32,000 bases of DNA from Nitratidesulfovibrio vulgaris str. Hildenborough. Its GTDB lineage: Bacteria > Desulfobacterota > Desulfovibrionia > Desulfovibrionales > Desulfovibrionaceae. This document shows, piece by piece, positions 17,736-32,000 of the stretch. The position numbers and the translations under genes are program-made. Positions within the stretch are counted from its first letter, which is position 1, and each line of letters begins with the position of its first letter. The notes under the pieces are model-generated. The model had not been told where the DNA came from and did not search any database. It was given only the letters and a program-made list of their open reading frames with translations. The stretch covers positions 840,001 through 872,000 of the forward strand of contig NC_002937.3 in the NCBI RefSeq assembly GCF_000195755.1, written 5' to 3'.

Positions 17736-17761
17736 ACAAAGGCCCCGTAAGGGGCCTTTGT
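17736..17761. terminator. bidirectional terminator hairpin ACAAAGGCCCC-GTAA-GGGGCCTTTGT
   Basis: An 11-bp perfect stem with a GNRA loop and A/T runs on both sides, between the convergent BON and aminotransferase genes. Confidence 0.8.
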
Positions 17762-23158: not shown

Positions 23159-23327
23159 CGGCGCGTGTCGATGGCGAGGGGGGACACCGGGCCACATCTC
23201 CGGCGGGAGTGGCATTCGCTGGATGGCGCGTAGCGAATGGCTGTTGCATGCTCCCCTGCGCCGTCACGACAGGGAATCGTAACGGTCAGCCGATGTCGCG
23301 GCGAGTCCACCCGGTGCACGGATGCGA

Positions 23328-23352
23328 CAAAGGCCCCGTGAGGGGCCTTTGT
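23328..23352. terminator. bidirectional terminator hairpin ACAAAGGCCCC-GTGA-GGGGCCTTTGT
   Basis: It has the same 11-bp stem as the hairpin at 17736-17761, with a GNRA loop. It lies between convergent genes ending at 23158 and 23400. Confidence 0.75.
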
Positions 23353-29791: not shown

Positions 29792-30208
29792 TTATCCGAG
29801 GACCTTAGCAGTAGCCTTGGCGGCGAGGGCACCCACCTGGCTCCTGAGGCTGTCCATGGCCGTGGCGACCTGGGCGGACACATCGGCGCGGGCCTTGAGC
29901 AGATAGTCCTGTGCCTCCTTGTTGGCGGCAAGAACGATATCATGCTCGCGGGCCTGCCCCGCTGCCCTCGCCAGTTCGCGTTCGGAAGCGGCTTCCGAAC
30001 GTGCCTGTGCGAGGATTGCCTCATAGTTCTTGATCTTGGCCTCGGCCTGGCCGGAAAACTGCTCGGACTCTCCGAGCAGCCCCGCCATCTTGTCCTGCCG
30101 CTGCTTGATGATCTCCCGAACCGGACGGATCAGGAGAGCGTTGAGCACGACCAGCGTGACAAGAAAGTTCACCAGCTGGAATAGCATTGTGATGTTTAAA
30201 TCGATCAT
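29792..30208 (-). CDS. atpF2: Fo ATP synthase subunit b'
   Basis: 138 aa with an N-terminal TM (MLFQLVNFLVTLVVLNALLIRPV) followed by a charged coiled helix. There is a GGGAG SD. Confidence 0.9.
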   Translation of the reverse strand: MIDLNITMLFQLVNFLVTLVVLNALLIRPVREIIKQRQDKMAGLLGESEQFSGQAEAKIKNYEAILAQARSEAASERELARAAGQAREHDIVLAANKEAQDYLLKARADVSAQVATAMDSLRSQVGALAAKATAKVLG

Positions 30209-30255
30209 GCCTGCTCCCTAGGTGAGGTTGTGAATTAAAGCTCAAAGTCGGATTG

Positions 30256-30284
30256 GCTTTAGCTGTTTTCAACCCTTGTGTCAA
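30256..30284 (-). promoter_or_regulatory. candidate sigma70 promoter TTGACA-N17-TAAAGC for atpF'FHAGDC
   Basis: The reverse complement gives a perfect -35 at 30279-30284 and a weak -10 at 30256-30261. It sits in a relatively AT-rich 320-nt spacer. Confidence 0.35.
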
Positions 30285-30534
30285 AAGCTTTTTTCTTTGC
30301 ATTCGCTTCTTTGCGACCATTTTCAAGGCGCAAGTGTGCGGTATGGTGATGTAAAATCACACAAGTCCCGCGAGGCACCCAAAAAGACGTCTTTGCCTGT
30401 TCGTACTTTATTGCAGCTATCCGATCTCACTGATGTTATTGTTTGAGAGAACACTCAATTCTGGGCCGCTTGCATCAGTCCGCGCTCGAAATGCCATTTC
30501 GGAACGCCTTCATTCCATAGCCGGGGTGCAGATG

Positions 30535-30561
30535 AAAAAAAAGCCCGTCTAACCGACGGGC
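30535..30561 (-). terminator. canonical intrinsic terminator (7-bp GC stem + U8)
   Basis: The minus-strand RNA reads GCCCGUC-GGUUA-GACGGGC followed by UUUUUUUU (plus-strand A8 at 30535-30542). Confidence 0.85.
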
Positions 30562-30984
30562 GTGACGAATGCGAATGTGCTTGTTTTCGGGCTTCGCCGG
30601 GTGGGCTCGCGTGTCGCTGCCCGGCGTGATGCTGCCGTATCCCAAGGGGACGTGCCCTTTGCCGTACCTGCCGGATTCTCTGAAAGGCCTCGGTGATAAG
30701 AGGGGAATCCCGTAAAATCCTTAGGGCGTATGCCGCAAAGCGTGTCTTGCCATTGACACGCCACGCAGGGAGGATGGGGCAAACGCGACCATGACTGCGC
30801 CTGCATACGCTCATACCCTGATGAGTGGGGTTAAAAGGGCCTACAGCGGGTTTCCGTGGTCATATGCGAGAGTGTGTGCGAAGCGGGGGCTTCGCGTCTC
30901 CTGAGGCCTTCTGGGGCTGTTCGCGGCCTTGCTGCCAAAGAGCGCCATGCCGGGACAGGTGGTTCTTTCTGGCTATAGTCGAGC
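30562..30984 (-). other. ORF-free, GC-rich, hairpin-rich transcribed spacer: candidate ncRNA or long structured 3' UTR of the bactofilin gene
   Basis: This is ~420 nt between the bactofilin stop (30985) and the terminator. The only ORFs are Arg-rich with rare codons. It contains several local hairpins (e.g. GCGAAGC-GGGG-GCTTCGC at 30878-30895 and CGTGTC-TTGCCATT-GACACG at 30741-30760, plus-strand sequence). Confidence 0.3.
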
Positions 30985-31332
30985 TTACTGTGCGGTGGCG
31001 GTGCTGTCTGCACCCATGTGCACTTCGCCCTCGATGCGGGCACCGTCTTCCATGATGAGCGCAGGTGTGCGGATGGTGCCGTTGATGATGCCGGTCTTGT
31101 GGATGACGATCTTACGTGTCGCTGTCACCTCTCCGTTGACGGTACCGCTGAGCACGAGTTGGCCCACATTGAGCGTGCCGTCGATGATGGCGTCGGTGCC
31201 GACGATGAGTGTGCCGTCGGACGTGATCTCGCCGGTGAATGTACCGTCGATGCGCACTGCACCCTGAAAGTTGAGCTGTCCTTGGTAGCGGGTTCCCGAA
31301 CCGAGGAAGGCGTTGATTTCATCTTTGCTCAT
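30985..31332 (-). CDS. bactofilin (polymer-forming cytoskeletal protein, DUF583)
   Basis: 115 aa from the ATG at 31332, with an AGGAG SD. It has the beta-helical repeat pattern typical of bactofilins (G.LNFQGAVRIDGTFTGEITSDGTLIVG..AIIDGTLNVGQLVLSGTVNGEV). Confidence 0.85.
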   Translation of the reverse strand: MSKDEINAFLGSGTRYQGQLNFQGAVRIDGTFTGEITSDGTLIVGTDAIIDGTLNVGQLVLSGTVNGEVTATRKIVIHKTGIINGTIRTPALIMEDGARIEGEVHMGADSTATAQ

Positions 31333-31369: not shown

Positions 31370-32000
31370 CTAGTTGGTCTTGAAGACGAAGCGTCGCATG
31401 GAGACGTTGAGAACGAGTCCGATGAGGGAGAAATTGACCAGTGTGGCACTGCCCCCATAACTGATGAAGGGTAGCGGGATGCCCACGACCGGCATGATGC
31501 CGACGACCATTCCCGTGTTGATGAGAATCTGCCAGAAGAAGTAGAAGAATACACCTGCTGCCAGCGTGCTGCCGAACCTGTCCTTGGCGTCGCGCGCGGT
31601 GTTGAAGATGCTCAGCAGGAAAAGGCTGAACAGGGCAAGCAGGGCGACGCAGCCGACAAATCCCCACTCCTCCCCGAAGACGGCGACGGCGAAGTCGGTA
31701 TGCTTTTCCGGCAGGAAGCGCAGCTGGCTCTGTGTGCCCCCCAGAAAGCCTTTCCCCCATAACTCACCGGAACCGATGGCAATCTGTGACTGGATGATGT
31801 GGTATCCCGCGCCAAGGGGGTCGTTCTGCGGATCGAGGAACGTGAGAATACGCTGCTTCTGGTAGTCGTGCAGGCAGAACCAGCCTAGCGGGAGAAGGGG
31901 AGGGACCACGGCAAGGCAGACCTTGAGCACGCGCCACTGGATGCCGTGGTAGAGGATCATGCCGCCGAGAAGCAGCAGGAGATTCAGGGTCGTGCCGAGG
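31370..32000 (-). CDS. rodA: rod shape-determining protein RodA (SEDS family), C-terminal part; the gene continues beyond the window
   Basis: DPLGAGYHIIQSQIAIGSGELWGKGFLGGTQSQLRFLPEKHTDF..., PLPFISYGGSA. The frame stays open to position 32000. Confidence 0.9.
   Translation of the reverse strand, partial: LGTTLNLLLLLGGMILYHGIQWRVLKVCLAVVPPLLPLGWFCLHDYQKQRILTFLDPQNDPLGAGYHIIQSQIAIGSGELWGKGFLGGTQSQLRFLPEKHTDFAVAVFGEEWGFVGCVALLALFSLFLLSIFNTARDAKDRFGSTLAAGVFFYFFWQILINTGMVVGIMPVVGIPLPFISYGGSATLVNFSLIGLVLNVSMRRFVFKTN

Follow-up and report, generated by a model that had tools for sequence, protein, structure and literature searches.

The 423 nt that separate the stop codon of a bactofilin gene from a strong intrinsic terminator in Nitratidesulfovibrio vulgaris str. 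Hildenborough are best read, with a probability that we put at roughly 0.72, as lineage-specific, fast-turnover non-coding DNA between two operons, forming the untranslated tail of the mrdA–rodA–bactofilin operon. The sequence has no detectable sequence-specific function, and it is not a member of an RNA family, a conserved structure or a recognisable gene remnant. An earlier note had offered an unassigned non-coding RNA, a long 3′ UTR and a decayed gene as explanations, and among these the long 3′ UTR, or simply a plain spacer, survives as the default reading. On this reading, transcription of mrdA–rodA–bactofilin would run on beyond the last gene, adding some 420 nt of C-rich RNA that is not translated, and would be stopped at the latest by the terminator at 30535–30561; Rho may end part of it earlier, inside the untranslated stretch. 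The terminator would insulate the conserved atp promoter, which lies about 250 nt further on and serves a highly expressed operon.

Anatomy of the locus

Positions given here are those of the window, that is, the whole 32,000-nt stretch of DNA that was analysed; adding 840,000 gives the coordinate in the genome (NC_002937.3), in which the stretch under study occupies 870,535–870,984. The order of genes on the minus strand is PBP2, rodA, bactofilin, a spacer of 776 nt, atpF′, atpF, atpH and atpA, and the features around the spacer are as follows.

30985–31332, minus strand: bactofilin (DVU0784), identified as an ORF with Pfam PF04519; last gene of the mrdA–rodA–bactofilin cluster
30562–30984, minus strand: non-coding stretch of 423 nt; presumed untranslated 3′ end of the mrdA–rodA–bactofilin transcript
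30878–30895, minus strand: perfect hairpin GCGAAGC-CCCC-GCTTCGC, without a U tract
30740–30761, minus strand: perfect hairpin or inverted repeat GCGTGTC-AATGGCAA-GACACGC
30535–30561, minus strand: intrinsic (Rho-independent) terminator GCCCGTC-GGTTA-GACGGGC, then U8
30300–30534, minus strand: region of lower GC (0.41–0.48) upstream of the atp promoter, including the island ATTGAGTGTTCTCTCAAACAA
30209–30299, minus strand: atp operon promoter and leader, predicted from reading of the sequence
29792–30208, minus strand: atpF′ (ATP synthase F0 subunit B′, DVU0780), with which the atp operon begins

The flanking proteins, among them bactofilin, the F0 B′ subunit and the delta subunit, match those of the Hildenborough strain exactly. 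The bactofilin protein is AAS95264.1 (WP_010938085.1), its gene is placed at 870985–871332 on the minus strand in a supplementary gene table (PMC10102598), and its stop codon, TAA, is at 30985–30987. Downstream of that stop the earlier description of some 420 nt without a credible ORF is borne out, the 423 nt containing only ORFs that are flat in codon-position GC, as is the remark that GC is as high as in coding DNA from the terminator to the bactofilin stop: it is 0.58–0.62 over 30550–30999 and drops to 0.41–0.48 past the terminator (30175–30549). On the RNA strand, 30562–30984 has 34% C and 26% G, with GC of about 0.6. At 776 nt, the distance between bactofilin and atpF′ is long for this locus, where most of the relatives examined have 180–325 nt.

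On the far side of the terminator the predicted atp promoter consists of a −35 element TTGACA (30279–30284) and a −10-like element TAAAGC (30256–30261), and by reading of the sequence a Shine–Dalgarno motif, GGGAG, precedes the atpF′ ATG at 30208. This region is strongly conserved, being 93% identical to the sister species (L094) over the 198 nt compared at 30150–30346 and 95% identical to a more distant relative (L084) over 110 nt, and an isolated 21-nt island further upstream, ATTGAGTGTTCTCTCAAACAA (30439–30459), is 90% identical in the sister species. Such conservation suggests candidate regulator-binding sites upstream of the TTGACA/TAAAGC promoter.

Hairpins, folding and database searches

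The terminator has a 7-bp stem with six G–C pairs (30543–30561), a 5-nt loop and a run of eight T (30535–30542), occurs on the minus strand only and fits the sequence definition of a GC-rich stem-loop followed by a U tract, as had been claimed for the 7-bp GC stem plus U8 at 30535–30561. Its 7-bp GC-rich stem, 5-nt loop and U8, and its place past the last gene of one operon and upstream of the promoter of the next, are those of a canonical operon-end terminator with a long 3′ UTR. It stands 424 nt past the stop codon, whereas in two relatives (L086 and L087) a terminator lies about 50 nt past the stop and in the sister species there is none. The two other hairpins named in the earlier note, at 30878–30895 and 30741–30760, are both real, each having a perfect 7-bp stem, and the second spans 30740–30761. 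Compared with dinucleotide shuffles, perfect hairpins of at least 7 bp are in excess, with three observed against 0.27 expected when the terminator is counted (p ~0.014) and two observed against 0.19 expected when it is left out (p ~0.034).

For the stretch as a whole, the description ‘structured’ is not borne out. The whole 450 nt fold with a minimum free energy (MFE) of −158.8 kcal/mol, compared with −151.5 ± 5.5 kcal/mol for the shuffles (z = −1.34), and 9 of 100 shuffles fold as well; the folding energy clearly below that of shuffles that would be expected of a structured non-coding RNA is not seen. Of the sliding 120-nt segments, the one holding the terminator alone has a notable folding energy (local MFE z = −2.1), the others being unremarkable, with z from +1.9 to −1.2. 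For the other two GC hairpins the simplest view is that they are incidental, or generic stems that stabilise a 3′ end. A scan of the minus strand of the stretch for σ70-like promoters, an insensitive one, found none, and inspection by eye for a σ54 promoter gave just weak GG-N10-GC matches. Elsewhere in the window, a 26-nt palindromic hairpin, ACAAAGGCCCCGT(A/G)AGGGGCCTTTGT, is present twice (17736–17761 and 23327–23352) at 96% identity, and resembles a bidirectional terminator that has been reused, or else a REP-like element.

The lack of any match by eye to RNase P, tmRNA, SRP, 6S RNA or riboswitches is upheld by covariance-model search, Rfam 15 at gathering thresholds giving no match in the whole window. 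When E values up to 10 were admitted over 30150–31100, the sole match inside the stretch was a terminator look-alike, the others being weak chance matches; this look-alike, anti-hemB, reached 14.6 bits against a gathering score of 49.5, covered the terminator hairpin only and was rejected. In searches of Pfam and NCBIfam with all ORFs and the six full-length frames of the stretch nothing was found below E = 0.02, and a Pfam TraN match in a frame overlapping the 3′ end of bactofilin (E = 0.024 and 0.15; 12.8–15.3 bits against a cut-off of 27) is attributed to chance.

The concatenated six-frame translations returned no protein at E ≤ 10 among the 8000 candidates listed from 5.8 billion proteins, which is a weak negative, ORF calls of the same species likewise not being returned. 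A full HMMER scan of the longest minus-strand ORF (119 aa) against 1.84 billion cluster representatives gave two repeat-protein matches only, and both are artefacts: a 4444-aa protein accumulates its score from summed weak repeats, with no single stretch passing, and in a 448-aa tandem-repeat protein the same 28 residues are matched six times. The suggestion of a decayed gene thus finds no support in any of these blastx-like tests (Pfam, NCBIfam and the large protein collections), codon-position GC is flat, and no frame searched resembles a protein or family in the way that a pseudogene would.

Nor does the stretch look like the remnant of a mobile element (IS, MITE or REP), as its ends were found in repeat searches to be without terminal inverted or direct repeats and there is no second copy within the 32-kb window. 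Comparison with plasmids and phages by blastn in distant mode gave no similarity, and a 24-mer from the centre of the stretch was found in the JGI metagenomes solely at the same locus of the same species. The literature searched, a body that did not extend to the transcript study of Price et al. 2011, makes no mention of the locus, of DVU0781–0783 or of a local sRNA.

Variation within the species and among relatives

Variation within the species was followed in the window sequence and seven conspecific sequences (L081, L082 and L089–L093; n = 8), which are about 98.5–100% identical over the locus. Polymorphic sites were distributed as follows.

Non-coding stretch, 30562–30984: 18/423 (4.3%), plus one 1-nt indel
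rodA: 2.5% of all positions; 15/210 third codon positions
Bactofilin: 1.2% of all positions; 3/115 third codon positions
Region past the terminator, 30300–30534: 4/235 (1.7%)
atp leader, 30209–30299: 0/91
atp genes: 0–0.9%

None of the other longer segments varies as much as the stretch, whose 18/423 is statistically the same as the 18/325 of the third codon positions of rodA and bactofilin together (Fisher p = 0.49); its rate of change is thus close to that of neutral sites nearby. Of the 18 polymorphic sites, eight fall within the 100 nt before the terminator (30562–30660), the part in which an sRNA derived from the 3′ UTR would have its seed. Eight are also at positions paired in the MFE structure, a slight under-representation that is not significant (62% of positions are paired), and seven of these eight break the pair; the one pair that is changed on both sides (30829/30817, on the same haplotype) becomes G–A and is not compensatory. 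The hairpin at 30878–30895 is invariant in all eight sequences, the hairpin at 30740–30761 has a loop polymorphism (A/G at 30754), and the terminator is intact in seven of the eight, the exception being L093, a contig whose name gives a coverage of 2.4×. The bactofilin stop is itself polymorphic, TAA being replaced by GAA at 30987 in four of the eight, which extends the protein from 115 to 119 aa by adding four residues up to the next in-frame TAG (30973–30975). In three of those four sequences the change is accompanied by a non-synonymous A/C difference at 31002.

A scan of GTDB genomes with the bactofilin gave only relatives at 63% identity or less, none of them N. vulgaris, and the close relatives were taken from exact-protein look-ups. 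Four of their sequences (L094, L095, L096 and L083) represent a sister species that is 92–94% identical in atpF′, atpF and atpH and 84% identical in rodA, and whose spacer at the same position is 1065 nt long, with GC of 0.66–0.70 over about 700 nt, above that of its flanking genes. From the bactofilin stop to about 30460, global alignment with this species gives identity at the random level, and its spacer is unalignable with 30460–30984, the best Smith–Waterman score being 16 against 12.5 ± 1.5 (maximum 21) for shuffles. Neither the terminator nor either of the hairpins at 30878–30895 and 30740–30761 has a counterpart there, and no terminator-like site was found anywhere in the sister spacer. 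Its six frames gave no match in Pfam, and its one Rfam match, to a norovirus CRE (E = 0.0025), is below the gathering score and spurious. Short imperfect tandem-like motifs occur in this spacer (L094 2936–3700), for example GGGTTTCGTGGGCTTCGCGGGTTTCGTGG and repeated GGCGGATGC units.

Beyond the sister species, spacers are about 180 nt long in L084 and L098, whose atp genes are about 83% and 75% identical, and 285–325 nt long in L085, L086 and L087; L084 has the atp promoter and leader in common with the window, but none of the stretch. Among the relatives compared, only N. vulgaris and the sister species thus have a long GC-rich spacer, and even these two show no sequence conservation in it. 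Synonymous divergence also jumps across the spacer: third codon positions are polymorphic at 15/210 in rodA versus 3/509 in atpF′, atpF and atpH together, and the sister species agrees at 59% of third positions in rodA versus 82–86% in the same three atp genes. This jump could reflect strong codon-level constraint on the atp genes or a recombination boundary within the spacer.

Considering the first of the earlier suggestions, an unassigned non-coding RNA, these comparisons tell against it: there is no Rfam match, polymorphism is near neutral, no change is compensatory, and neither the sister species nor the outgroups have an alignable counterpart. A lack of sequence or structure conservation in related genomes had been named among the findings that would refute the claim; sequence and structure are both unconserved, compensatory changes of the kind expected in a conserved structured RNA are not seen, and the non-coding RNA options fail on that ground. 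In the enterobacteria, sRNAs derived from 3′ UTRs (CpxQ, SroC, DapZ) have a seed and terminator region that is conserved across species. The stretch resembles them in lying directly downstream of a coding gene, with which an RNA processed from it would share the mRNA terminator. It differs in that the 100 nt proximal to the terminator are the most polymorphic and that nothing is kept in the sister species, from which 30562–30660 and the terminator are both absent.

Tests of conservation would not detect young, species-specific sRNAs, of which other bacteria provide examples. An sRNA of this kind, either with its own promoter within 30562–30984 or processed from the 3′ UTR, would end at the terminator at 30535–30561 and act by base-pairing. 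The strong terminator that closes the stretch and the two extra perfect hairpins above shuffle expectation fit such an RNA. Several sRNAs that are absent from Rfam have indeed been reported from RNA-seq of D. vulgaris Hildenborough (bioRxiv 10.1101/803072). A 966-nt Logan contig (L099, run SRR3212894) matches window positions 31533 to 30568 at 100% identity and ends 7 nt before the terminator stem, which is at most a hint of one RNA with bactofilin; if SRR3212894 is an RNA-seq run, the contig would be evidence for co-transcription of the stretch and that gene. Against a young sRNA stand the lack of an Rfam match, of excess folding stability and, in the insensitive scan, of a σ70-like minus-strand promoter, together with near-neutral polymorphism that is densest just before the terminator and that breaks pairs without compensating for any. 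The lack of an alignable counterpart in the sister species, despite the 93% identity of the adjoining atp promoter region, also counts against it, and we consider this reading quite unlikely.

Open reading frames in the spacer

Whether the spacer encodes one or more small proteins has to be asked, since ORFs are present in the stretch and genes appear to have been placed there before. The candidates are minus-strand ORFs of 119, 85 and 35 aa and a plus-strand ORF of 48 aa (30569–30715). The accessions of atpF′ (AAS95260) and bactofilin (AAS95264) leave room in their numbering for three genes between DVU0780 and DVU0784, and three hypothetical genes, presumably DVU0781–0783, were thus probably once annotated in the spacer. 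On one MAG contig (L082) a gene caller has called three plus-strand ORFs of 56, 39 and 48 aa (30276–30715), and these probably correspond to DVU0781–0783.

In GC-rich DNA stop codons are rare and chance ORFs are usual. Real genes at this locus have GC of about 0.6, 0.4 and 0.77 at the three codon positions, whereas the ORFs of the stretch all have a flat profile of 0.5–0.76. Polymorphic sites are not enriched at third positions, where they number 2 of 10 in the 85-aa ORF, 2 of 9 in the 48-aa ORF and 7 of 14 in the 119-aa ORF, and starts are polymorphic, with ATG>TTG at 30806, an indel at 30814 and ATG>GTG at 30569. There are no family matches. The 119-aa minus-strand ORF, the longest in the stretch, is the candidate frame that had been seen to run through the terminator, and it is not among the called genes in a collection that lists this bactofilin in 417 blocks; the 48-aa ORF is recorded on a single contig. 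That any of these frames encodes a protein is highly improbable. The plus-strand ORFs of 56, 39 and 48 aa, having no family, no coding statistics and polymorphic starts, are almost certainly spurious, and they do not differ from the spurious hypothetical ORFs of long intergenic regions in GC-rich genomes, which are likewise short automatic calls without a family or coding statistics.

Origin and possible role of the long spacer

Several points speak against the preferred reading, a fast-turnover non-coding tail. Besides the modest excess of perfect hairpins and the slight, non-significant deficit of polymorphic sites at paired positions, they concern base composition and length: GC in the stretch has stayed as high as in genes, not fallen to the level of the intergenic DNA next to it, and a long GC-rich spacer is also kept in the sister species. 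This hints at a recent coding or foreign origin, or at selection on length or composition.

Under the first of these possibilities, a gene or piece of foreign DNA would have entered the locus before N. vulgaris and its sister species diverged and would have decayed separately in the two lineages since; this is an account of origin and is compatible with the preferred reading. It would fit the restriction of long spacers to these two species (776 and 1065 nt, with 180–325 nt in the outgroups), the GC of both spacers, which is at or above coding level and unlike that of the adjoining AT-richer intergenic DNA, and a weak colinear local match between about 30596–30656 and L094 3541–3607, found at a similar spacing from the 21-nt island. 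We nevertheless hold it to be doubtful. No Pfam match was obtained in any frame of either spacer, nor an NCBIfam match for the window spacer; the six-frame query of 5.8 billion proteins was empty at E ≤ 10 among the 8000 candidates listed, and the 119-aa ORF found two repeat-protein artefacts alone among 1.84 billion representatives. Codon-position GC is flat, terminal repeats and similarity to plasmids or phages are lacking, and a tblastx-like comparison of the two spacers gave nothing convincing, its best match (E = 7e-4 over 38 aa) being on strands that are not colinear.

Selection on length or composition would take the form of a role that does not depend on sequence, with a long, untranslated, C-rich zone serving for Rho loading or as a spacer that shields the strong atp promoter from read-through. 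Such an insulating role would account for the retention of a long GC-rich spacer by two sister species despite the free drift of its sequence. Both have high-GC spacers of at least 776 nt, and the sister species, being without an intrinsic terminator, would need another mode of termination. The RNA strand is moreover C-rich and G-poor right past the stop (C 0.40 and G 0.21 over about 30860–30932), but an excess of C over G is also found in neighbouring minus-strand coding DNA and is thus not specific to the stretch, and close outgroups manage with 180–325 nt. We judge this role unlikely, and the same holds for the joint claim that the locus harbours either a young N. vulgaris RNA regulator ending at 30535–30561 or an insulating, Rho-loading spacer kept in both species. 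Either would, if true, have some modest interest for gene regulation in sulfate reducers.

Read as the untranslated, fast-changing tail of the mrdA–rodA–bactofilin operon, the stretch is an ordinary finding, and the result removes one candidate non-coding RNA. A further indication is that the spacer's short hypothetical ORFs, probably DVU0781–0783, are not genes. For Nitratidesulfovibrio, the locus offers a clean local example of fast non-coding turnover beside a strongly conserved promoter region.
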